Part shown: piece after piece, positions 114-63,383 of the stretch | How positions within the stretch are numbered: the stretch's first letter is position 1 | Layout of the letters: the number at the start of each line of letters is the position of its first letter | Assembly (NCBI GenBank): GCA_965116885.1 | Contig: OZ220741.1 | Coordinates: 384,001-448,000 of the forward strand | Direction of reading: 5' to 3' | DNA length: 64,000 nucleotides | DNA from: Candidatus Latescibacterota bacterium | Lineage (GTDB): Bacteria > Latescibacterota > UBA2968 | Program-made: the position numbers and the translations under genes | Notes under the pieces: generated by a model | The model's input: only the letters and a program-made list of their open reading frames with translations | Told to the model about the DNA's origin: nothing | Database searches by the model: none

Positions 114-142
114 TTGCATAAATCACTGTTTTTATGTATATT
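114..142 (+). promoter_or_regulatory. sigma70-type promoter of tnpB
   Basis: TTGCAT (114-119), 17 bp spacer, TATATT (137-142); expected +1 falls about at the ATG at 149. Confidence 0.65.
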
Positions 143-148
143 TACATT

Positions 149-1255
149 ATGGAATACTTAACATACAAATACAAAATGTATAGTCTCTGTGACCGCAATA
201 AGTATCTGCACTATGAGATAGACGCTTTTGCTCAGGTGTATAATCATTTCATTGCTTTGCATAAGCGATACTATCGGCGTTTTGGCAAGTATCCGAGTAA
301 GTTCACAATGATTAACCATTTGGCAAAGCTGAAAAGAACAGGACGATTTGCTCATTGGCGTTTGTTGCCGAGCCAGGCATTGCAAAATGTGATTGAGCGT
401 ATAGACTTTGGCTATCAGAAATTCTTTGCCAGAGACAACAAGCGTCCGCCTACTTTCAGGTCTCGCTTTCGGTATCAGTCCTATACACTCAAGCAAGCAG
501 GATACAAATTCCTTGCGCGTAACAAGGTGCGTATCGGCAAGCGTATATTTCGCTATCACAAAAGCAGAAAATTCGATTTAGATAGTATCAAAACGGTCAC
601 AATCAAACGGGACCGTGTAGGCGATTTGTGGCTATGTGTTGTTGCAAAGGCTAAAGGTATCAAGTCATTCATGATCAAGAACGGTAAAACCGCAGGTTTT
701 GATTTTGGCTTGAAAACATATCTAACAGCCTCAGATAACACACGGATACAATCGCCTTTGTTCTTCAATCGTAATTCGAGGAAAGTCAAAAAGGCGAATC
801 GCAATCTTTCTCGCAAGAAGAAAGGGAGCCATAACCGTCATAGGGCCAGAGTAAATCATGCCAGAGTGCATAGGCGCGTTGCTAATCAGCGCAGAGACTA
901 TCATTGGCGACTTGCCCATCAACTGTGTAAAGACTATGACGTAATGTATTTTGAAACGCTGAATATCGACGCCATGAAAGCGTTGTGGGGCAGAAAGATT
1001 AGCGATTTGGGCTTCTCGGACTTTTTGAACATTCTCAAGTATGTTGCCAAAAAGACGGGCAAGGTTGTCAAACAAATCGACAAATGGCTGCCCACGTCAA
1101 AGACATGCTCTGCTTGTGGCACAGTCAAAGAGGACCTCGAATTGCGAGAGAGAACATTCCATTGTTGCGCGTGTGGTCTTGAGATAGACAGAGACCTCAA
1201 CGCGGCGATAAACATTCACAGGTGGAGGCGTCCACCTATGGCGGAGGTAGCGTAA
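149..1255 (+). CDS. tnpB: IS200/IS605 family RNA-guided endonuclease TnpB
   Basis: N-terminal TYKYKMY...FAQVYN, RuvC-I GFDFGLK, RuvC-II YFETLN, zinc finger CSACG...CCACG, RuvC-III DRDLNAAINI; start placed at ATG 149 (ORF track opens at 134). Confidence 0.95.
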   Translation: MEYLTYKYKMYSLCDRNKYLHYEIDAFAQVYNHFIALHKRYYRRFGKYPSKFTMINHLAKLKRTGRFAHWRLLPSQALQNVIERIDFGYQKFFARDNKRPPTFRSRFRYQSYTLKQAGYKFLARNKVRIGKRIFRYHKSRKFDLDSIKTVTIKRDRVGDLWLCVVAKAKGIKSFMIKNGKTAGFDFGLKTYLTASDNTRIQSPLFFNRNSRKVKKANRNLSRKKKGSHNRHRARVNHARVHRRVANQRRDYHWRLAHQLCKDYDVMYFETLNIDAMKALWGRKISDLGFSDFLNILKYVAKKTGKVVKQIDKWLPTSKTCSACGTVKEDLELRERTFHCCACGLEIDRDLNAAINIHRWRRPPMAEVA

Positions 1256-1381
1256 GACTTGCCGAACTTCGGGAACGCAAGCAACTACTGTTGATCCCAC
1301 AATCCCTGCTGAAGCAACAAGATTTTAGAATCCCAATGCTTTAGCTTTGGGAGTACGTCAACATGCCAACGACACGCGAGT
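1200..1381 (+). ncRNA. putative TnpB omega/reRNA (scaffold to 1361, guide about 1362-1381)
   Basis: Position overlapping the tnpB 3' end and IS right end follows established TnpB biology; 5' boundary approximate. Confidence 0.55.
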
Positions 1382-1415
1382 AGAAAGCACCAAACTTTAC
1401 CCGAGAAATAATAAA

Positions 1416-3248
1416 ATGACCTGTGCAACACTCACTGCAAAAACGCGCCAACAACCACCCGACTGGGCCGTGCGCCAGCGCCAACTAATAGCGGTAATGG
1501 ACCGCGCTGCCCACCCTTTTGTCGAACACAGCACCCGGCCGGACGGCACCCTGATCCAGCGCACGGTGTGGACGAGCATGGACGGCACAGACAACGGCTA
1601 TGAGGCCTTCCTCTCCTTCCCCCTCTTCTACCTGCTGGGCGGCGGCGAGCACATCCACCGGATCGCCCGCAAAGAGTGGGACGCCATCACCTATCAATAC
1701 GCCAACTACGGCACAGTGGATCGGGAATTCGTCACCGGCTTCGACTGGTTCCACCACTCCGAGAGCTACACCTACATCTACTATCTGGCCATGGCCGACC
1801 CCGAGAACCACATCGACCGCACCCGCGCCCTGCGCTACGCCGCCATGTACACTGGCGAGGATCCACTGGCACCCAACTGGGATGCCCAGCACTGCATGAT
1901 CCGCTCGCCCCTCAACGGCAGCCAGGGACCGCGCTTTGTAACCACCCGGACCGATTGGGACTACCACCGCCCCATTCTCTCCGGATACCTCGCTCCGTAT
2001 GAAGACATAGAAGGTGCTGACCGTTCTGACCCACTCTTCAAGGTCGATTGGACCGACGACCGGGTCTTCGCCCGGGTGCTCGACCAGATCAATCAACGCA
2101 TGACCCGCGGCGACGTACCCCTCAACCTGTGTGCCACCAGCCTGATCACCAACGCGTACCTCTACACAGGCGAAGACAAGTACCGGCAGTGGGTACTGGA
2201 TTATTTGCAAGCCTGGGAAGCGCGCTGCGCCACCAATGATGGCATCATGCCCGACAATATCGGTCCCAACGGCATCATCGGCGAGTTAATGGGCGGAAAG
2301 TGGTGGGGCGGGTACTACGGCTGGCGCTGGCCGCACGGGGCGCGCAATATCGTCGAGCCAGCCCTCGTCGCTGGCAGTTGCGCCCTGCTCATGACCGGCG
2401 ACATGTCGCATCTGGACCTGGCCCGCTCACAACTCGATATGCTCTGGGAAAACCGACGCGAGGAGAACAGCCAGATCCAGGTGCCAGCACGGCACGGCGA
2501 CCGCGGCTGGTTCGACTTCCGCCCACCCGATCCCCATTTGTACATCCACCTGTATTACCTGAGCCAGAGCGCCGAGGATCTGGCCCGTCTCGACGAGGTC
2601 TTCCCGGGACGCAAGGGCTTTGCGGGTCTGCCACCCGACTGGGGTGCTGCCAAGGCCGGCATCTGCCCCCCAAAAGCCTGGTTCGCCTTTACCGAAGGCA
2701 AAAATCCCGACTACCTCAACCAGGTCTTCGACTCGACCTATTCCAGCATCTGCCGCAGCCTGGAGCGTTTGGAAAGCGATGACAGCGACCCGGAAACGCG
2801 CGAATGCTACCACTTCCAGAAACTCAATCCAGTGCTGCCCGAAGCCCTCATTCAAATGGCCATGGGCACGCCCGCGGCCATATACAACGGCGGCATGCTG
2901 CAGGCCCACCTGCGCTATTTCGACCCGCAACACCACCGCCCGGGACTGCCCAAACACGTCGCGGCACTGGTTGATCGGGTCAGCGCCGACCAGGTCAGCG
3001 TATCGCTGGTAAATACCGATCCGGTGGAGAGCCGAGCCGTACTGCTCCAGGCCGGTTCCTTTGGCGAGCACTGCTTTACCCGTACCCACCTCGAAACCCG
3101 TGAGGGCGATGACCAATCCGTCGAGGTGAAAGGCAAATATCTTCGGATAAATCTGGGTCCAGGTGCTCAGGCACGCCTGCACATTGGACTGAAGCGCTTT
3201 GCCTTCCAGCCCTCCTACGCCCTCCCGCCTTTTGCAGACCTTTTCTGA
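1416..3248 (+). CDS. conserved hypothetical protein, about 610 aa, Trp/Tyr-rich, possible glycoside hydrolase/lyase-like fold
   Basis: Long ORF with strong GC3 bias; motifs GFDWFHHSE and KWWGGYYGWRWPHG; ATG at 1416. Confidence 0.75.
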   Translation: MTCATLTAKTRQQPPDWAVRQRQLIAVMDRAAHPFVEHSTRPDGTLIQRTVWTSMDGTDNGYEAFLSFPLFYLLGGGEHIHRIARKEWDAITYQYANYGTVDREFVTGFDWFHHSESYTYIYYLAMADPENHIDRTRALRYAAMYTGEDPLAPNWDAQHCMIRSPLNGSQGPRFVTTRTDWDYHRPILSGYLAPYEDIEGADRSDPLFKVDWTDDRVFARVLDQINQRMTRGDVPLNLCATSLITNAYLYTGEDKYRQWVLDYLQAWEARCATNDGIMPDNIGPNGIIGELMGGKWWGGYYGWRWPHGARNIVEPALVAGSCALLMTGDMSHLDLARSQLDMLWENRREENSQIQVPARHGDRGWFDFRPPDPHLYIHLYYLSQSAEDLARLDEVFPGRKGFAGLPPDWGAAKAGICPPKAWFAFTEGKNPDYLNQVFDSTYSSICRSLERLESDDSDPETRECYHFQKLNPVLPEALIQMAMGTPAAIYNGGMLQAHLRYFDPQHHRPGLPKHVAALVDRVSADQVSVSLVNTDPVESRAVLLQAGSFGEHCFTRTHLETREGDDQSVEVKGKYLRINLGPGAQARLHIGLKRFAFQPSYALPPFADLF

Positions 3249-10640: not shown

Positions 10641-10681
10641 ATAAACGAATAGACGAATAGACGAATAGACGAATAGACGAA
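10641..10681. repeat. octamer tandem repeat (GAATAGAC)n
   Basis: acgaatagacgaatagacgaatagacgaatagacgaa; related units at 10766-10783, 53603-53624, 56768-56784, 63325-63370. Confidence 0.85.
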
Positions 10682-23409: not shown

Positions 23410-24311
23410 TTATGGCTCAACCTTCACTTCTACCCCCGCAGTCTTCTCCGCCACCTTAATCGACGCTGTCTGATCTTCATCGCCCAACCCCATCCCCATC
23501 GCTATGGTCTGAATTTGATACGCCGCCGCGCCCATCAAATTTGTCGCACCCAGTGAAGCGGCCATCTGCGCAGCCAACCCGAGATCCTTGTGCGACAACT
23601 GCAACTTGAAATAGGGTTCAAAATTTCGCACCAGTGCGCGGCGCTTAAAACTCCCTTGCAAATGCGAAGAATTTGCAGCCGTATTCGACATCACATCCCA
23701 CAACACACCCACATCCAATCCCGCGGCAGCACCCATCGCAAAAGCCTCACCCAACAGCGTAGCAACCGAACACGACACCAGATTATTGACCAGCTTAGTC
23801 GTCACACCCATGCCCAACTCACCACAATAAAACTGCTCGTCGCCCAATGTATCCAGCACATCTTGTACAGACGCCACCACATCGGCATCGCCGCCAATCA
23901 TCAGCGTCAATCCCCCCGTGCCGCGTCTGCTGGCCCCTTACCCACGGGCACATCCAGCATGTGCCCGCCCTTTTCCGCTATAACCCTGCCAACCCTGCGC
24001 GTCGTATCCGGATCAATCGAACTCATATCGATATAAACCTGCCCCGCCGACAACCCGGAAACAATACCATCCGGTCCCAAAGCGACTTGCTCAACAGCCT
24101 GCGGCGTCGGCAGCGAAGAAATAACAACCTCCGACTGCTCGGCAACAGCCCGGGGCGTATTCACACCCGTTGCCCCCTTCTCCTGCAAAACCTGCACCGC
24201 TTCATCGCGCAAATCGTGAACCGCAACATCATAACCACTCGCAACCAGATGACTCGCCATCCCACCGCCCATCATCCCCAGCCCCACATATCCCAATTTT
24301 CGTTTCACCAT
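23410..24311 (-). pseudogene. 3-hydroxyisobutyrate/tartronate-semialdehyde reductase family oxidoreductase, split by a 1-nt frameshift (or sequencing error)
   Basis: N-half GYVGLGMMG...DVPV (23907-24311) and C-half LTLMIGG...KLVNN...KDL (23410-23910) lie in different frames at a G6 run. Confidence 0.8.
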
Positions 24312-24319
24312 CTCACCTC

Positions 24320-26023
24320 TCAAATGTTAAATGATATCTGCCATATACCCGCAGCCTGTCTTGCCATCCATTCCTGCCGAGAGTGAATCTTATCCACGGT
24401 CCACGTATCATATTCTTGCGACAACTTGTGGGTTATGGAGAACTCGCTCGCACCATAAACAGGGTGTTTTTCAGTGAATTTTACGTTTCCGATATCGCGA
24501 TTGTGGGCCGCTTCCAGAAGCGTCATATTACCCAAACGATAGGTAGATGCTTCCCGTTGCCGATCATCAAATGCTTCCCATCCATCATCGGGATTCTCCG
24601 GCAATACGTGCTCAATACTGTACTTCGCACTCTCAAAATCAAACCGTTTTCCGGATAGGTGCTCTTCCAAACGGAATAAGATAAAACGCGCTATCTTCTT
24701 GTTGCGACTGCTGGAAGTCCGCAGTGCTTTATTGGAAAAAGCCGTTCTGAACTCTCCATTCCCGGGATAAACCGGACGCAGTGCCGCAATCGCGGCAGCA
24801 ATACTATCAATGCGACCGTCTGAAATTCCGCAAGCGATCTGGTTATACACCACTTCCTGCTCATTGCTTTGGCGACCACATATCACATTGTAGCGAAAGG
24901 ACACCACTGCGATAGCTCGCAAAAAGCGCCCAAATCCAGCCCTATCGTCTTCCGCAAAACGATCATACACCGTCATCAACACCGCCAGGGGTTGGCGCAC
25001 ACTGAACATCTGCAACTGCGCCAGGTTATCGCGTTCCTTCTCTGCCCATAAACTATCCTCTGGGCTACGCAACGCCGTATAAACCCGTGCGTACCTATCC
25101 ATATCGCGAATTAACGCAAACGCCTTTCCCCTGTCATTGATCGCGTCGCGGATGGTCTTGAACAAGTAGGTCCTGCGTACCAACCTGTTGCGACTATTCC
25201 AGAACACGCGCAAAAACTCTGGAAAACTTTCGCTGCCCAGCAACCCGACGATATCCTCCCAGCGATTTTCCAGTGTCTTGAGTTCAGATTCATGCATGCC
25301 GCCTCGAGATATGACCGAAAATAAGTAATTCTTCAGCAAATCCGTTGCAGACAAGCGCACACCGCGAGCATTCAACGTCTCGAAGACTTTGAAGGCGTTT
25401 AACTCATCCGTAACTGTGATAACCGTAAAGAATAGCTTATCCACTGCAACATCAACAAAGCGCGCCACCGCCTCGCCGTTATTATGTGAGTGCTCCCTGA
25501 CACGATCCTTAAAGAAAGTAAACGCCCGGCGCAGTAAATGCTCCGAGGCATTCAGACCTCGTTGCGGCAGGCGCTCTAAAGGAACGAGATAGTTCTGGTA
25601 AAATCCATTGTCGTGGCGATTCAAAGTCAGCTTGGAACGCGCCACCAGGCTCACCGGATCCAGATAGCCGATGTAGTTATGACGCAACTGCTGCGCACGC
25701 CGGTATTGAGGGTCGTTCGGATCGTCTGGCACCGCCAGATCCGTTAAATGAGACACCGCCGCCAGCATCAACAGACTAAGTGTCGTCATGCGTTGCTGCC
25801 CGTCAATAATGTCGAACTCCCTGTTGTCAGAGGATTGCAGCACCAAATAGCCCATATAATGCGCTGGCTCCGGATCCTCGCCAAACAGCCCGACAATGTC
25901 TTGCCACAGGTCATCCCATTCATCGCCCCCCCACGAGTAGTCGCGCTGAAACGTCGGCACGCGATAACTCAGCCCATTGCCCATGAGTTGGCGAAAGGTA
26001 TTGTTGGTGGTGTTAAAATTCAT
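24320..26023 (-). CDS. GmrSD-family (DUF262 + DUF1524 HNH) modification-dependent restriction endonuclease
   Basis: VPTFQRDYSW, IIDGQQRMTT, FETLNARG, SIEHVLP, RLGNMTLL. Confidence 0.88.
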   Translation of the reverse strand: MNFNTTNNTFRQLMGNGLSYRVPTFQRDYSWGGDEWDDLWQDIVGLFGEDPEPAHYMGYLVLQSSDNREFDIIDGQQRMTTLSLLMLAAVSHLTDLAVPDDPNDPQYRRAQQLRHNYIGYLDPVSLVARSKLTLNRHDNGFYQNYLVPLERLPQRGLNASEHLLRRAFTFFKDRVREHSHNNGEAVARFVDVAVDKLFFTVITVTDELNAFKVFETLNARGVRLSATDLLKNYLFSVISRGGMHESELKTLENRWEDIVGLLGSESFPEFLRVFWNSRNRLVRRTYLFKTIRDAINDRGKAFALIRDMDRYARVYTALRSPEDSLWAEKERDNLAQLQMFSVRQPLAVLMTVYDRFAEDDRAGFGRFLRAIAVVSFRYNVICGRQSNEQEVVYNQIACGISDGRIDSIAAAIAALRPVYPGNGEFRTAFSNKALRTSSSRNKKIARFILFRLEEHLSGKRFDFESAKYSIEHVLPENPDDGWEAFDDRQREASTYRLGNMTLLEAAHNRDIGNVKFTEKHPVYGASEFSITHKLSQEYDTWTVDKIHSRQEWMARQAAGIWQISFNI

Positions 26024-35443: not shown

Positions 35444-36943
35444 ATGATCGAACACCCCAACCTCCTGCTCATCACAACAGACACCCAGCGCTGGGACACC
35501 CTCAACTGCATGGGCAGTCCCTTTGCACATTCACCTCATGCAGATCGCCTCGCGGCCGAAGGCGTCATGTTCACACAGGGACACACGCCCTCACCGGTAT
35601 GCAACCCCTCGCGCAGCAGCCTCATCACCGGCCTGCACACCCCCATACACGGCGTATGGGAAAACGGCATGACCCGCCTCACCCACTTCCCAACCCTACC
35701 CGACCTCCTCAAAGAACAGGGCTACACCAACATCATGGTCGGCAAACAACACTTTGGACAAACCCCCGACACTTTTGACATCATCATCGGCCAGGACGAT
35801 TACAGAAAATACATCCCAAAACATGGATTCACACCCCGGGACTGCCACAAACAACCCACACCCGTACCCGAAGAACACTTCCTCGACACCTTTTTCGCCA
35901 AACAAACCATCGAACAAATTGACCAGGTCGTCAAGCGCGATTCGGGTCCCTTTTTCGCCTTCTGCTCATTCCCCGCGCCACACCCACCCGAATGTCCACC
36001 GGGAGACTGGCTCACCTTTTACGACAACTGCGACAACCTGCCCGACCTCAATTACACCCACCGCGAAGAACAAAACCAGCCCGCACACACCAAACGCCTC
36101 CTCGGCATCAAACCCGAAAACGAATGCCATCCAGGCGAAGACCCAAACACCATCACATACTGGCGAGAAGCCATTGGCCGCATCTACGACCCGCAATACC
36201 GCGACACCATCATGGAACTCCGCAAAATCTATTATGCCTATGCCGCGTACTGCGACGCTCTCCTCGGCCGCATCCTGAACTACCTCGACCAGAATAACCT
36301 TAGGGAAAACACCCTGATCGTCTTCACATCCGATCACGGACAACAATTCTTCGACCACGGCTTTAATGACAAACACAACTTCTACGATGAATCCTGGCGC
36401 GTCCCCTTTATCATGAGCATGCCAGGCACCCTTCCGCAAGGAGAAACGCGCGACTTCGCCATCTGGAACGACATCACCACCACCCTCCTCGCGGCTGCCG
36501 GCACCGAATGCCCCTCCATGCAGGGCTTCGACCTCTTCACCCCACTCGCCAGAGGCGAACAATCCCCCCGCCGCTGCGCCGTTGCCACCCTCTACAAATC
36601 CTGCGCCGTCGCCACAAAACGCTGGAAACTCGATTACTTTTTTGAAGAAGACGAAGGCCGTCTCTTTGACCGCATCAACGACCCCCAGGAACAAAACGAC
36701 CTCTACCACCATCCAGACCATCTCGAAATCCGCAACGAACTGCGCCACGCCCTCTTATCCTGGCGCGGCGACATCGCCGACCTCAAAACCGCACTGGAAG
36801 GCACAACCAAAAACAGGGGACCAAACGCCCGGGGATACACCACCGTAGCCCCTCGCATTGCCCCACACACCCATCAAATGCGCGGCACCGACGCCGAACA
36901 GCGCCTGAATGAAAAATGTGAACGGATAGACGAGATGGGGTAA
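35444..36943 (+). CDS. formylglycine-dependent sulfatase
   Basis: PNLLLITTD, CNPSR, GKQH, TSDHG. Confidence 0.92.
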   Translation: MIEHPNLLLITTDTQRWDTLNCMGSPFAHSPHADRLAAEGVMFTQGHTPSPVCNPSRSSLITGLHTPIHGVWENGMTRLTHFPTLPDLLKEQGYTNIMVGKQHFGQTPDTFDIIIGQDDYRKYIPKHGFTPRDCHKQPTPVPEEHFLDTFFAKQTIEQIDQVVKRDSGPFFAFCSFPAPHPPECPPGDWLTFYDNCDNLPDLNYTHREEQNQPAHTKRLLGIKPENECHPGEDPNTITYWREAIGRIYDPQYRDTIMELRKIYYAYAAYCDALLGRILNYLDQNNLRENTLIVFTSDHGQQFFDHGFNDKHNFYDESWRVPFIMSMPGTLPQGETRDFAIWNDITTTLLAAAGTECPSMQGFDLFTPLARGEQSPRRCAVATLYKSCAVATKRWKLDYFFEEDEGRLFDRINDPQEQNDLYHHPDHLEIRNELRHALLSWRGDIADLKTALEGTTKNRGPNARGYTTVAPRIAPHTHQMRGTDAEQRLNEKCERIDEMG

Positions 36944-55229: not shown

Positions 55230-56537
55230 TCATGGATGCAACCTGTTGGGGGTGCGAGACAAAAAAGTCGTCTCTCGCACAGAGGACAAGCCGAGCATAA
55301 CCATGAGCAGGCGCGACAGGCCAAAACCAAATCCTCCGTGCGGAGGACATCCGTACTTAAAAAAATCGAGATAAAACTGGATAACCTCTAAATCCAGCCC
55401 CTTCTCTCTCGCCTGCGCCCTCAGGACATCGGGACGGTGTTCGCGTTGCGCGCCTGTAGTAATCTCCACACCGCGATAGAGAAGGTCAAAACTCCTGGTC
55501 AACTCAGGATATTCTGAATGACGCATGTGGTAAAATGGTCGCACAGAAACCGGGTAGTCTATCACAAAGACATAATCGCATCCCCTGGTTTTACGGATAT
55601 ATTCACCTATCAGACGCTCACCCTTTGGATCGAGATCGCCTTCCCGATCTGGCATGTGGCCCTGTTCGGACAACACCGCCAATGCCTCGGCCATCGCGAT
55701 CCGCGGAAAAGGCAGCACTGGCACCGCGAGTTCAACACCGTAATTTTCGGCAATAGCGTCACCATATTTTTCTCGCACTGTATAAATGACATGTTGCAGC
55801 CATTGTTCTTCAAATGCCATCACATCCTCGTGACCATCAATCCAGGCGATCTCGACATCCACACTCGTAAACTCCGTCGTATGACGCGAAGTAAATGAGG
55901 GATCGGCGCGAAAAACGGGCGCAATTTCAAACACGCGATCAAAACCAGACGCCATTGCCATCTGCTTGTAAAACTGGGGTGATTGCGCCAGATAGGCCGT
56001 AGAATTAAAATACGGCAACGCGAACAACTCAGCCCCCGATTCACTGGCTGTACCCATCAGTTTGGGAGAGTGGATCTCGATAAAATGATTTTGCATCCAG
56101 TACTCGCGCATCGCCATTTCAACAGCAGTCTGTATCTCAAAAATCAACCGATTGCTCGGAACGCGAAGATCGAGATGCCGCCAATCCAGCCGATGGTCAA
56201 TACCCGATGCATTTTCGGAAAATGGATCCAGAGGCAACGGCGCTTCAGCTACATTGACAACACTCAGTTCCGCAAGCTGAATCTCAACACCCCCCAGACG
56301 AACACCTGGATTTTCGACAACGTGTCCGCTTATGGATATCGCCGATTCTCGCGTAAGAGCAGAAACCCGCTCTGCCAACGCCCCTGTCTTTTCGTGAACA
56401 ACCTGTACACTTCCCGTGCGATTTCTCAAAATGAGAAACTGGACATGTTTTTGGTCGCGCAGGGCATGCACCCATCCGTGAAGCGTAACGGTTTGGCCGA
56501 TATATTTGGACAGTTCAGATATTGCAATGTATTTCAT
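55230..56537 (-). CDS. aspS: aspartate--tRNA(Asp/Asn) ligase, short archaeal-type, likely non-discriminating
   Basis: 435 aa; GWVHALRD OB fold, RLDWRHLDLR, LAQSPQFYKQ, FRAD, GAQREH, PPHGGFGFG; no bacterial GAD insert. Confidence 0.92.
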   Translation of the reverse strand: MKYIAISELSKYIGQTVTLHGWVHALRDQKHVQFLILRNRTGSVQVVHEKTGALAERVSALTRESAISISGHVVENPGVRLGGVEIQLAELSVVNVAEAPLPLDPFSENASGIDHRLDWRHLDLRVPSNRLIFEIQTAVEMAMREYWMQNHFIEIHSPKLMGTASESGAELFALPYFNSTAYLAQSPQFYKQMAMASGFDRVFEIAPVFRADPSFTSRHTTEFTSVDVEIAWIDGHEDVMAFEEQWLQHVIYTVREKYGDAIAENYGVELAVPVLPFPRIAMAEALAVLSEQGHMPDREGDLDPKGERLIGEYIRKTRGCDYVFVIDYPVSVRPFYHMRHSEYPELTRSFDLLYRGVEITTGAQREHRPDVLRAQAREKGLDLEVIQFYLDFFKYGCPPHGGFGFGLSRLLMVMLGLSSVRETTFLSRTPNRLHP

Positions 56538-56565
56538 GACAGACTCCTTTTTGAATTCCAGAAAT

Positions 56566-56601
56566 AAAAAAAGCCCGTTGTCGAAAAATACGACAACGGG
56601 C
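56566..56601 (-). terminator. attenuator terminator upstream of aspS
   Basis: Minus strand GCCCGTTGTCG-tattttt-CGACAACGGGC-TTTTTTT, ending about 30 nt before the aspS start. Confidence 0.88.
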
Positions 56602-56631
56602 ACTTTACTCTACATACTGGCACAAGACGAC

Positions 56632-56730
56632 CTATGCCGGTCCAGCCCGTCGCCGGATCGGATTATTATCGTCATTATTATTGCCAGTGAACTGAGCGAT
56701 TTGGAAATAGCGTATATGCATAGTATTCAT
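56632..56730 (-). CDS. Asn/Asp-rich leader peptide of aspS (32 aa)
   Basis: MNTMHIRYFQIAQFTGNNNDDNNPIRRRAGPA*; seven consecutive Asn/Asp codons; overlaps the antiterminator strand. Confidence 0.82.
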   Translation of the reverse strand: MNTMHIRYFQIAQFTGNNNDDNNPIRRRAGPA

Positions 56731-56837
56731 CCAAAAAATTATTAGATATTGGGGTGGCTTGGTGGGGTTCGTCTATTCGTCTATGAACTGGCCTGAGAGG
56801 CGGCCAGTTGTACCCCGTTCCGTCTATTCGTGATTTT

Positions 56838-57572
56838 TTAAACTTTTCTCCCGCCAAAAACAGCCAGTTCAAACAGCTTGAAATAACAATCTACATCTGA
56901 AAACCCAATGGCTCTGAGCCATTCGCATTGGTCTTCAACAGACGCGAGAATATTCGCCTGCTTATCATCGCGATAATAATAAGCCCGCGCGATTTCATCG
57001 CGAGAAGCATTTGGATCTCGCCGGGTAACAGAATTGTAAAGCGCGTCAATAAAACGATCTGCAAAACGCGACTCAACCCACTTTGTCGGAGAGCGAACAT
57101 GCTCGACATTGACAAACACACCATTGGGAGAAAGCAGATCAAAAATCTCGCCATAAACCTCGCGCTTGCGTTCATCGCTCTGGTGATGAATTGAAAAACC
57201 CGACACAATCGCATCATAAGGCGCATCATCTGCAACCAGACTGAGCCAATCGGACGTCGCATAATCCCCAATAACAAAACGATGCTGTGAAACCGTTTCC
57301 CCAAACCGTTTCCGCGCAGCCTCGATCATAGCCTCAGAAAAATCCACAAAAACGCCGCGTGCATCCGGGTGGTATTCAATAACCGCAGCACCGAGGATGC
57401 CATCGCCACACCCCAGATCCAGCACAGTATTGACCCTGTGATCATCCGCATTGATCACCCGGCACATAACGGCAATCTGCTCATCGGACAGCGGAATTGC
57501 CTGCCGAATATTTTTCAAATATTTCTGCGCCAGATCCCGCGCCTGCCAGGCAGTGTCTTTGCGTTTGCTCAT
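56838..57572 (-). CDS. class I SAM-dependent methyltransferase (CmoA-like)
   Basis: VLDLGCGDG, YDAIVSGFSIHH, LSPNGVF. Confidence 0.88.
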   Translation of the reverse strand: MSKRKDTAWQARDLAQKYLKNIRQAIPLSDEQIAVMCRVINADDHRVNTVLDLGCGDGILGAAVIEYHPDARGVFVDFSEAMIEAARKRFGETVSQHRFVIGDYATSDWLSLVADDAPYDAIVSGFSIHHQSDERKREVYGEIFDLLSPNGVFVNVEHVRSPTKWVESRFADRFIDALYNSVTRRDPNASRDEIARAYYYRDDKQANILASVEDQCEWLRAIGFSDVDCYFKLFELAVFGGRKV

Positions 57573-62287: not shown

Positions 62288-62686
62288 TTACTCGGGATAG
62301 ATAATCAGGCTATCGGCTTGCACCTCCGACAGCACCATCTCGGTTTGCGAATCTAAATAATCCGACACCGTATTTGCCTCGGTATCTCCATTATCTATTA
62401 ACACCATAAAAATAACAGCAGCGGCAGCGGCCAATGGCACGAGGCGTTTACCCGCCCATACCAGGCTATTCCATAAACTCTCTTCCCGAATCTGTGCCTG
62501 AACGCCATCCCACAACCCCGGCGAAGACGCCATCGGACGCTGGCGCAGGCGTCTCTGCACATGGCGAAGCAAATCGTATTCCGCGCGAAACTCTGCATCC
62601 TCTGCTATTCGCGCCTCAATTTCGCACACATGCTCCGCAGACAAATTACCGTCAACATAGAGCAACAATTTATCGCGATCAGTCAT
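62288..62686 (-). CDS. putative anti-sigma factor
   Basis: LLLYVDGNLS...IEARI N-domain, single TM helix, overlaps the sigma stop codon. Confidence 0.75.
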   Translation of the reverse strand: MTDRDKLLLYVDGNLSAEHVCEIEARIAEDAEFRAEYDLLRHVQRRLRQRPMASSPGLWDGVQAQIREESLWNSLVWAGKRLVPLAAAAAVIFMVLIDNGDTEANTVSDYLDSQTEMVLSEVQADSLIIYPE

Positions 62687-63276
62687 ATCTCCTCCCCTTG
62701 CCATTCGCGGTACAGCGGCAAAAGCAAATCGCGTAAACGCGCCCGCGCCCGCGAAAGCCTCGACTTAACAGTACCGACCGATACATCCAAAACATCGGCA
62801 ATTTCTTCTTGAGAAAAACCCTCTATATCCTTGAGAACCACCACCGCGCGATGCTCGGGCGAAAGGTAATCGAGCACCTTCTGAATCTCCTCGCGCAAAC
62901 CAATGCGCTCAATATCATTTTGCGGTTCATCCGTACCCAAAAACCGATCCAGCGTCATATCGCTCGCCTCCTGCATCCCCTCGATAGAAACACGATCGGG
63001 CCGTCGTTGCTCGCGCTGGGCAAACGTGAGACAAACATTGGTGGTAATGCGATACAAATACGTGTAAAAACTCGACCGACCCTCAAAATTTCCCAGTGCT
63101 CTATACACTCTAATAAACGCCTCTTGCGCCGCATCCTTTGCCACCTCGCTATCGCCGAGAATCGAACACGCCAGACCGTAAATTCGGTCTTCATAACGTT
63201 CAACCAACTGGCGGAAAGCCTGCACATCGCCCTTTTGGCATTGACGAATCAGATCTCGTTCATCAAAATCAGCCAT
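62683..63276 (-). CDS. ECF (sigma-70 family) RNA polymerase sigma factor, RpoE/SigW-like
   Basis: GDVQAFRQLV, DAAQEAF, SSFYTYLYRITTN, EIADVL...GTVKSRLSRAR. Confidence 0.93.
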   Translation of the reverse strand: MADFDERDLIRQCQKGDVQAFRQLVERYEDRIYGLACSILGDSEVAKDAAQEAFIRVYRALGNFEGRSSFYTYLYRITTNVCLTFAQREQRRPDRVSIEGMQEASDMTLDRFLGTDEPQNDIERIGLREEIQKVLDYLSPEHRAVVVLKDIEGFSQEEIADVLDVSVGTVKSRLSRARARLRDLLLPLYREWQGEEI

Positions 63277-63324: not shown

Positions 63325-63370
63325 GTCTATTCGCTGATTCGTCTATTCGTCTATTCGCTGATTCGTCTAT
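63325..63370. repeat. octamer tandem repeat in the ECF 5' UTR
   Basis: gtctattc/gctgattc units in tandem. Confidence 0.8.
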
Positions 63371-63383
63371 CCGTTTCGCAGGA

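Follow-up and report, generated by a model that had tools for sequence, protein, structure and literature searches.

A candidate leader-peptide attenuator with an asparagine/aspartate codon run and a SecM-like tail in front of an archaeal-type aspS gene in Latescibacterota

The 64,000-nucleotide stretch analysed here, hereafter the window (positions 384,001 to 448,000 of contig OZ220741.1, Candidatus Latescibacterota bacterium), carries on its minus strand an aspS gene for an aspartyl-tRNA synthetase (AspRS), preceded by a short leader open reading frame (ORF) and an intrinsic terminator. The product exceeded the curated cut-offs of both equivalog models for the archaeal-type enzyme (NF003483, 500.6 bits versus 353; TIGR00458, 403 versus 368.4), while falling below those of the models for bacterial-type AspRS, which it matched in two stretches only, and for asparaginyl-tRNA synthetase. 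Such scores are those of an archaeal-type non-discriminating AspRS, and on this basis the enzyme is probably non-discriminating. Pfam scans of 45 further ORFs, together with NCBIfam scans of the three genes that flank aspS, revealed no asnS, gatCAB, asnA/B or second aspS in the window. The gene starts at the ATG at 56537, behind a Shine-Dalgarno sequence (AGGAG, 56548-56544) and 28 nucleotides (nt) past a T-run; the longest ORF call begins at a GTG at 56603 (55230-56603, minus strand, 457 amino acids) and crosses the terminator and its U-tract. A database homologue of 478 amino acids (P0005) may have a similar spurious N-terminal extension.

In front of the gene, the minus strand encodes MNTMHIRYFQIAQFTGNNNDDNNPIRRRAGPA followed by a stop codon. 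Its run of asparagine (N) and aspartate (D) codons is the sole heptamer made up entirely of N/D residues among the 104,858 stop-free seven-residue windows in six frames of the 64 kb, and a cluster of cognate codons in a short 5' leader ORF is what a leader-peptide attenuator carries. The terminator consists of a 5' arm (segment 3, GCCCGTTGTCG, 56601-56591), a TATTTTT loop and a 3' arm (segment 4, CGACAACGGGC, 56583-56573), with seven T residues at 56572-56566; its stem is perfect, with 11 pairs, 8 of them G-C, and an energy of -20.2 kcal/mol. The R-R-R-A codons of the leader peptide (segment 2) are a copy of the terminator 3' arm and can therefore pair with the 5' arm, giving a duplex of -20.6 kcal/mol; among dinucleotide shuffles of the upstream leader, 0 of 2000 matched this pairing energy and 22 of 2000 reached an 11-pair run. 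A long protector hairpin (anti-antiterminator) sequesters segment 2 when no ribosome is stalled; it forms in the window and in the relative L001, is weaker in L002 and is not dominant in L003.

All features that a sequence-only reading of this DNA had described were found where it placed them: the minus-strand small ORF with its N/D run (56730-56632), the 11 pairs (two of them G-U) between segment 2 and the terminator 5' arm, the perfect 11-bp terminator with U7 about 30 nt before aspS, and the archaeal-type AspRS itself. Two details needed revision. The frame and codon run of the leader ORF stood, with the start moved to the second ATG, where the relatives begin; the protector hairpin exists in both minimum free energy (MFE) and centroid folds, and its extent is larger than had been described. 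The most unusual feature of the leader, an invariant SecM-like tail, had gone unmentioned. Table 1 lists the positions.

Table 1 Features of the aspS leader, tails of related peptides and a dispersed repeat in the window
Feature	Position	Strand	Description
aspS, archaeal-type aspartate--tRNA(Asn) ligase	55230..56537	minus	435 amino acids; NCBIfam NF003483 and TIGR00458
Leader ORF including stop codon	56632..56730	minus	start conserved at second ATG 56721, 29 amino acids: MHIRYFQIAQFTGNNNDDNNPIRRRAGPA
Control-codon run (NNNDDNN)	56662..56682	minus	AAT AAT AAT GAC GAT AAT AAT; 5 Asn and 2 Asp codons, consecutive
Codons for tail PIRRRAGP	56638..56661	minus	SecM-like RAGP core; PI[RQ]RRAGP invariant in 10 of 12 peptides
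Segment 2 (antiterminator strand) CGGCGACGGGC	56645..56655	minus	codons R-R-R-A; pairs with segment 3
Protector (anti-antiterminator) long hairpin	56617..56687	minus	MFE and centroid folds; sequesters segment 2 without a stalled ribosome
Intrinsic terminator	56566..56601	minus	5' arm (segment 3), loop, 3' arm (segment 4), U7
P0122 tail			...NPNNNNNNHNPIQRRAGPNGS
P0124 tail			...NLNPNPNDDNNPIQRRAGPWFGS
P0125 and P0126 tails			...NANNN(N)DDNNPIRRRAGPAYA
P0128 tail			...GNPNPNHNDGNPIQRRAGPMYT
P0129 tail			...NVDANPNDDGNPIQRRAGPM
Dispersed octamer element	10645-10679	plus
Dispersed octamer element	56770-56831	minus
Dispersed octamer element	63340-63374	minus
Dispersed octamer element	36922-36932	plus

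The closest genomic relatives are Latescibacterota metagenome-assembled genomes (MAGs), of which L001 and L002 share 93% AspRS protein identity with the window and L003 shares 63%. An upstream ORF with 6-7 N/D in 8 residues is present in all four Latescibacterota sequences, as is the terminator, and the combination of N/D run, terminator and antiterminator occurs in 4 of 4 Latescibacterota but in 0 of 77 loci of other phyla; among those 77 (Solirubrobacterales, Anaerolineae, other Actinomycetota and others), no upstream ORF had more than 3 N/D in 8 residues. The leader peptides of L001 and L002 are almost identical to that of the window, and that of L003 reads MTTRCSIYHINTSLKSPGTAVCLDVNPYNDNNNHNPIQRRAGPNGS. 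In the window, L001 and L002, the conserved stretch extends from precisely the second ATG (56721) to the U-tract, with unrelated DNA farther upstream, which gives a conserved peptide of 29 residues. A methyltransferase gene precedes the leader in the window and L001, a class-I aminoacyl-tRNA synthetase gene in L003; since the leader is kept while this neighbour changes, the element belongs to aspS and not to the preceding gene. The L003 synthetase (214-2658, plus strand, 814 amino acids, Pfam tRNA-synt_1 and Anticodon_1) lies on the same strand and adjoins the aspS leader upstream. In L002 (about 2895-2985), some 80 nt that the window and L001 lack are inserted between the leader terminator and the aspS Shine-Dalgarno sequence; the insertion contains a palindromic GTCATGCTGAGCGGAGTGAAACGGAGTCGAAGCATC-like repeat and indicates that terminator-to-gene spacing is not constrained.

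Substitutions between the window and L003 follow the codons of the leader. Over the eight PI(R/Q)RRAGP codons, third positions changed in 6 of 8 cases and first and second positions together in 1 of 16 (Fisher P = 0.0013), leaving 7 of 8 residues identical. Because RNA pairing gives no three-base periodicity, these codon-periodic changes are evidence of translation in the leader frame and of selection on the peptide, and because the variable third positions are the first positions of an antisense ORF (56506..56745), that frame is ruled out. The pattern, together with the existence of a conserved ORF family, lends indirect support to the view that the leader ORF is translated and the peptide itself selected; judged by its codons, the PI[RQ]RRAGP tail is under peptide-level selection.

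Related peptides were sought by a word-indexed search with a four-peptide profile and by an exhaustive hidden Markov model search over 1.84 billion representatives, the latter returning 6 proteins at E <= 0.001, all short peptides sharing the tail. In 10 of the 12 distinct family peptides, PI[RQ]RRAGP is followed by 1-4 residues and the stop, which conforms to a RAPP-like core (R-A-(G/P)-P near the C terminus, with invariant Arg and Pro); 10 of the 12 members are 29-48 amino acids long. The 12 residues preceding the tail in the ten tail-bearing peptides hold 7-10 N/D (4-8 N, 1-3 D) in variable order, for example NNNDDNN, NDNNNHN, NNNNNNHN, NPNPNHNDGN and NVDANPNDDGN, and the N-terminal parts, two thirds of the peptide, are unrelated between lineages. 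Two independent lineages are represented by DNA and about four further ones by peptides only. Peptide P0124 and the AspRS P0074 are from contigs of equal length (5,656,476 bases), a hint that this leader too may lie beside an aspS gene. A RAGP 1-3 codons from the stop was found only in three Latescibacterota loci, whereas 13 other loci contain a chance R[AG][GP]P match, each at least 13 codons from the nearest stop. One member, P0123 (34 amino acids), is a leader variant, MIYYFQIAQFTGNNNDDNNPIPATGWTGIGRLVP, whose tail corresponds to window-type DNA after a one-base insertion in the C-run after ATC; the insertion, deduced from the peptide, would be either an assembly error or a natural disrupted leader.

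The RNA pairings are also maintained between lineages. Pairs were tabulated by anchoring on the CCCG/CGGG cores in the four sequences with DNA; a MAFFT alignment of the four leaders moved the L003 terminator arm by two columns and was excluded from the pair counts. Helix positions 6 and 7 of segments 2, 3 and 4 read A,G / U,U / A,A in the window lineage versus G,G / C,C / G,G in L003, a three-way covariation at two positions, across two independent lineages only, that keeps the mutually exclusive antiterminator. A terminator base pair changes from G-C to A-U between lineages, and L003 has compensatory changes at three terminator pairs. Duplex energies are matched in all four sequences (antiterminator, -18.7 to -21.1 kcal/mol; terminator, -19.6 to -21.7 kcal/mol), and 16 of 2000 L003 shuffles reached the observed duplex energy.

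Since equilibrium folds cannot separate the regulatory states, the transcript was folded only to just past the terminator 5' arm, with the ribosome footprint masked. With the ribosome absent or early on the window leader, the protector forms and segment 3 is free (probability of being paired, 0.09-0.17). Once the A site is on one of leader codons 9-19, a range that takes in six of the seven N/D codons, the antiterminator probability is 0.81-1.0; it is 0.72 at codon 20, the last N, and 0.45 at Pro-21, and farther on the strand is masked by the ribosome. The N/D codons thus lie at the 3' edge of the zone in which a stalled ribosome permits the antiterminator (probability 0.7-1.0 with the A site on N/D codons), and the end of that zone falls within about two codons of the end of the run in all four sequences, for footprint edges from P+11 to P+17; in this masking model, control codons are placed as in an attenuator. 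The sequence-only reading had likened the locus to trp/his-type attenuation, had proposed aligning related aspS upstream regions and folding with the ribosome masked, and had named loss of the N/D run in relatives as evidence against it. The run is kept in all four Latescibacterota sequences, one of them at 63% AspRS identity, segments 2, 3 and 4 co-vary, and the folds reproduce the trp/his logic, with the antiterminator forming when the A site is on the N/D run.

We consider it likely that a leader-peptide, ribosome-mediated transcription attenuator controls this archaeal-type, probably non-discriminating AspRS in Latescibacterota. Scarcity of Asn-tRNA(Asn) or Asp-tRNA(Asp) would stall the ribosome in the N/D run; the stalled ribosome would open the protector hairpin and free the antiterminator strand, which would capture the terminator 5' arm on its emergence and allow RNA polymerase to read into aspS. 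With charged tRNA plentiful, the ribosome would move over the R-R-R-A codons, the antiterminator would be blocked and transcription would terminate. Stalling of this kind would report on Asp-tRNA(Asp) as well as on Asn-tRNA(Asn), the GatCAB step included, and the dominance of Asn codons over Asp codons would fit an enzyme specialised in making Asp-tRNA(Asn) for GatCAB. The RAGP tail may also park the ribosome precisely over the antiterminator strand while RNA polymerase completes the terminator: by geometry, a ribosome with Gly-30 in its P site would cover the R-R-R-A codons that form this strand. Parking would be most needed in the L003 type, where the stop codon lies farther downstream and no stable protector forms; lacking a dominant protector, L003 would adopt the antiterminator by default, and termination there would need a ribosome on the R-R-A-G-P codons. 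More tentatively, and with somewhat less than even confidence, we propose that two stalling devices share one 29-residue peptide, N/D hunger codons that lead to readthrough and a SecM-type RAGP arrest that leads to termination by parking on the antiterminator strand, in which case the R-R-A codons would serve as arrest motif and RNA switch at once.

Several observations weigh against attenuation as proposed. With the full terminator in the fold, the terminator wins at equilibrium for every ribosome position (probability 0.96-1.0 in the window lineage and 0.64-0.79 in L003), so that the switch would have to be kinetic; the terminator of the trp leader likewise wins at equilibrium. The last one or two N codons sit in the transition zone, and basal states differ, with the antiterminator at 0.7 under an early ribosome in L002 and formed by default in L003. 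The run length of the L003 antiterminator is not significant alone (325 of 2000 shuffles), and with two independent DNA lineages few events underlie the covariation. The genes of the window use AAT preferentially for Asn (381 versus 217), leaving no rare-codon enhancement. There is no consistent Shine-Dalgarno sequence before the conserved leader ATG (GGAG in L003, GGATGA in the window, none evident in L002), and a promoter scan and upstream sequence comparison identified no leader promoter upstream. Two of the 12 family peptides, P0123 and P0127, have no RAGP, and most proteins with RAPP-like motifs that have been tested caused no ribosome stalling, upstream context being important (PMC10987492).

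The alternative that survives best holds that the N/D stretch is not a set of hunger codons but the tunnel-contacting part of a RAGP arrest peptide, with arrest being intrinsic or else induced by a small molecule, for instance free Asn or Asp. Arrest in TnaC and SpeFL is triggered by their ligands. An arrested ribosome would cover segment 2 and enforce termination, and relief of arrest would give readthrough. The positional invariance of the tail and the selection on the peptide speak for this, the N/D residues lie 7-13 behind the P-site Gly, inside the span of the SecM motif F150xxxxWIxxxxGIRAGP166, and in L003, with its default antiterminator, arrest could decide the outcome. We nevertheless consider it unlikely because the N/D region is kept in composition but not in order, a pattern usual for control codons and unusual for a ligand pocket, because the protector of the window lineage reforms on ribosome release and would bring about termination with or without arrest, and because the agreement of codon identity with the two tRNA substrates of the enzyme would be coincidence.

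Attribution of the hairpin to the upstream gene, as its terminator, with a fortuitous small ORF and an aspS promoter past the terminator, seems very improbable to us. The methyltransferase gene does lie on the same strand and end at 56838, about 235 nt before the hairpin, and the terminator would act on any transcript arriving from upstream, but the element stays with aspS beside the different upstream gene of L003, conservation starts at the leader ATG rather than at the end of the upstream gene, and the U-tract and aspS start of the window are only 28 nt apart, Shine-Dalgarno sequence included; the codon-periodic substitutions, the 12-member peptide family and the complementarity of segments 2 and 3 also argue against it. 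We give slightly less credence still to the AAT-rich run being the -10 element of a promoter reported by the scan (TTCACT-18-AATAAT, 56691..56662), which would start transcription within the leader and leave the ORF off the mRNA: the scan gave 2 sites in 3 kb versus 3.7 expected from shuffles, the tail is probably translated, in frame with the upstream ATG and with no in-frame start between run and tail, and members such as NPNPNHNDGN need no AAT run. A free-standing functional peptide, for example secreted or modified, with its own terminator and unrelated to aspS control, would explain a conserved peptide with a terminator after it and is equally improbable, because all four loci with DNA have the ORF in front of aspS, the codons under strongest conservation also form the antiterminator strand and change in step with the terminator, and the lineages share no relationship over the N-terminal two thirds. 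We also dropped a precursor of the microcin C kind, whose target would be AspRS: such precursors end in Asn and need MccB, whereas the final residue of the leader peptides is A, S, T or M, and nothing resembling MccB turned up when neighbouring ORFs were scanned with Pfam in the window, L001 and L003, the three loci covered.

Elsewhere in the window, a dispersed short element consists of a tandem octamer, ACGAATAG, followed at two sites by ACGAACCCCACC..GCCACCC; the 11-mer ACGAATAGACG occurs 10 times (<=1 mismatch) versus 0.82 expected, and 0 of 100 shuffles reached 10. One pair of copies lies on either side of an 8-bp hairpin (56809-56786) that immediately precedes the aspS leader, another copy lies upstream of an ECF sigma factor gene (62686-63276), and the element stands in place of the L001/L002 sequence upstream of the leader; it may represent a mobile repeat or an array to which a regulator binds. 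The window starts with a TnpB/Cas12f1-like protein of the IS605 OrfB family (134-1252, plus strand; Pfam PF07282, PF01385). Two abutting minus-strand ORFs at 23413-24323, an NAD_binding_2 half (23910-24323) and an NAD_binding_11 half (23413-23910), appear to be halves of a 3-hydroxyisobutyrate/6-phosphogluconate dehydrogenase-type enzyme, separated by either a gene split or a frameshift. A block of paralogues at 20166-46492 contains six PhyH-family dioxygenases, three sulfatases, three DUF1800 proteins and one DUF1501 protein, together with a GmrSD-type restriction enzyme (24323-26023), TonB-dependent receptors and a PorV-like protein, which suggests a region for utilisation of polysaccharides or sulfated substrates.

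If the proposed attenuator is real, leader-peptide attenuation would gain a new amino-acid pair, a new enzyme and a candidate phylum represented here by MAGs alone, and a single translational sensor would meter the indirect route to Asn-tRNA(Asn), first through non-discriminating AspRS and then through GatCAB. The RAGP tail suggests that arrest peptides, associated so far mainly with protein export and a few other functions, may time attenuators, and the constraint on the same nine nucleotides as arrest-motif codons and as RNA-switch strand would make for compact overlapping codes. Should both stalling devices operate, an amino-acid attenuator would for the first time have a programmed peptide arrest as its off-arm, and an arrest peptide would for the first time be linked to tRNA-dependent asparagine synthesis. 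An N/D run followed by PI[RQ]RRAGP provides a simple search key for further leaders.

Full-text literature searches on leader peptides, attenuation and arrest peptides yielded no Asn/Asp leader for aspS and no attenuator with an arrest motif, and the window gave no Rfam match at gathering score, the weak matches at E <= 10 in 56400-56950 lying far below it; a scan of 20 further loci, L001-L003 among them, likewise gave no relevant Rfam family. These results agree with the sequence-only reading, which knew of no experimentally described case. No T-box matched at E <= 10 in 56400-56950, and none was found in L001-L003 or in 17 other loci. A short archaeal-type AspRS in a bacterium has precedents in Deinococcus radiodurans and Thermus thermophilus, where a second, archaeal-type non-discriminating AspRS makes Asp-tRNA(Asn) for GatCAB-dependent Asn synthesis (PMC4206432); the available text of that paper makes no mention of regulation of the present kind for this enzyme. 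A motif 5' of Shewanella aspS has been labelled 'tRNA synthetase leader', the gene there being bacterial-type and no leader peptide being described in the available text (PMC2659441).

The tail resembles those of SecM, ApdA/ApdP, ApcA and YwcI in carrying a C-terminal R-A-G-P, its Arg and Pro invariant, a few residues ahead of the stop on a short upstream ORF that, as in SecM and RAPP-like peptides, would regulate a downstream gene. In the SecM arrest sequence, F150xxxxWIxxxxGIRAGP166, Gly165 occupies the P site and Pro166 the A site, with Arg163 and Pro166 critical (PMC10951299). RAGP placed in ApdP and ApcA supports arrest, with the Arg irreplaceable, and is strongly depleted from bacterial proteomes (PMC12992588), and stalling of Bacillus subtilis YwcI at RAGP leaves Gly in the P site (PMC10987492). 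In its main text, as available, the RAPP survey makes no mention of a tRNA synthetase or ligase, aspS, attenuation or a terminator, although its supplementary tables could list RAGP-type small ORFs. Unlike these peptides, the present leader lies upstream of aspS rather than sec or yidC genes, outside the class that monitors Sec or YidC. Unlike SecM, it is, at 29-46 amino acids in most family members, too short for a signal sequence or for pulling, so that any arrest would not be released by force; its output would be transcription termination rather than exposure of a ribosome-binding site; and the residues preceding RAGP differ from the GI of SecM, making it a candidate arrest peptide.

In function, the nearest analogue would be the T-box control of tRNA-dependent Asn formation that Saad et al. 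reportedly described in Clostridium acetobutylicum in 2012 and 2013, where a 5' terminator/antiterminator switch is likewise said to couple non-discriminating AspRS/GatCAB-pathway genes to tRNA(Asn) charging; that T-box is said to bind uncharged tRNA directly and to need no translation, whereas sensing here would take place through the translating ribosome. In architecture, the closest counterparts are leader-peptide attenuators, classically those of Escherichia coli trp, his and pheST. Further examples, reported or predicted, are the aminoacyl-tRNA synthetase leaders of Streptomyces lividans (alaL-alaS, thrL-thrS, trpL2-trpS and leuL2-leuS; PMC8079986) and the cysS upstream-ORF motif of Rhodobacterales (PMC8632094). 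With all of these the present leader shares a short ORF with cognate codons and antiterminator and terminator hairpins, arranged so that a stall favours readthrough, and with the S. lividans and cysS leaders it shares an aminoacyl-tRNA synthetase gene as target. Leader attenuators are thus known for other tRNA synthetases, and an Asn/Asp leader for aspS, as predicted here, would be new. It is set apart from known attenuators by the absence of an Rfam model, by its occurrence in the phylum Latescibacterota, by the pairing of Asn and Asp codons for one enzyme that would serve two tRNAs, and by an invariant arrest-like tail whose codons are also the antiterminator strand.

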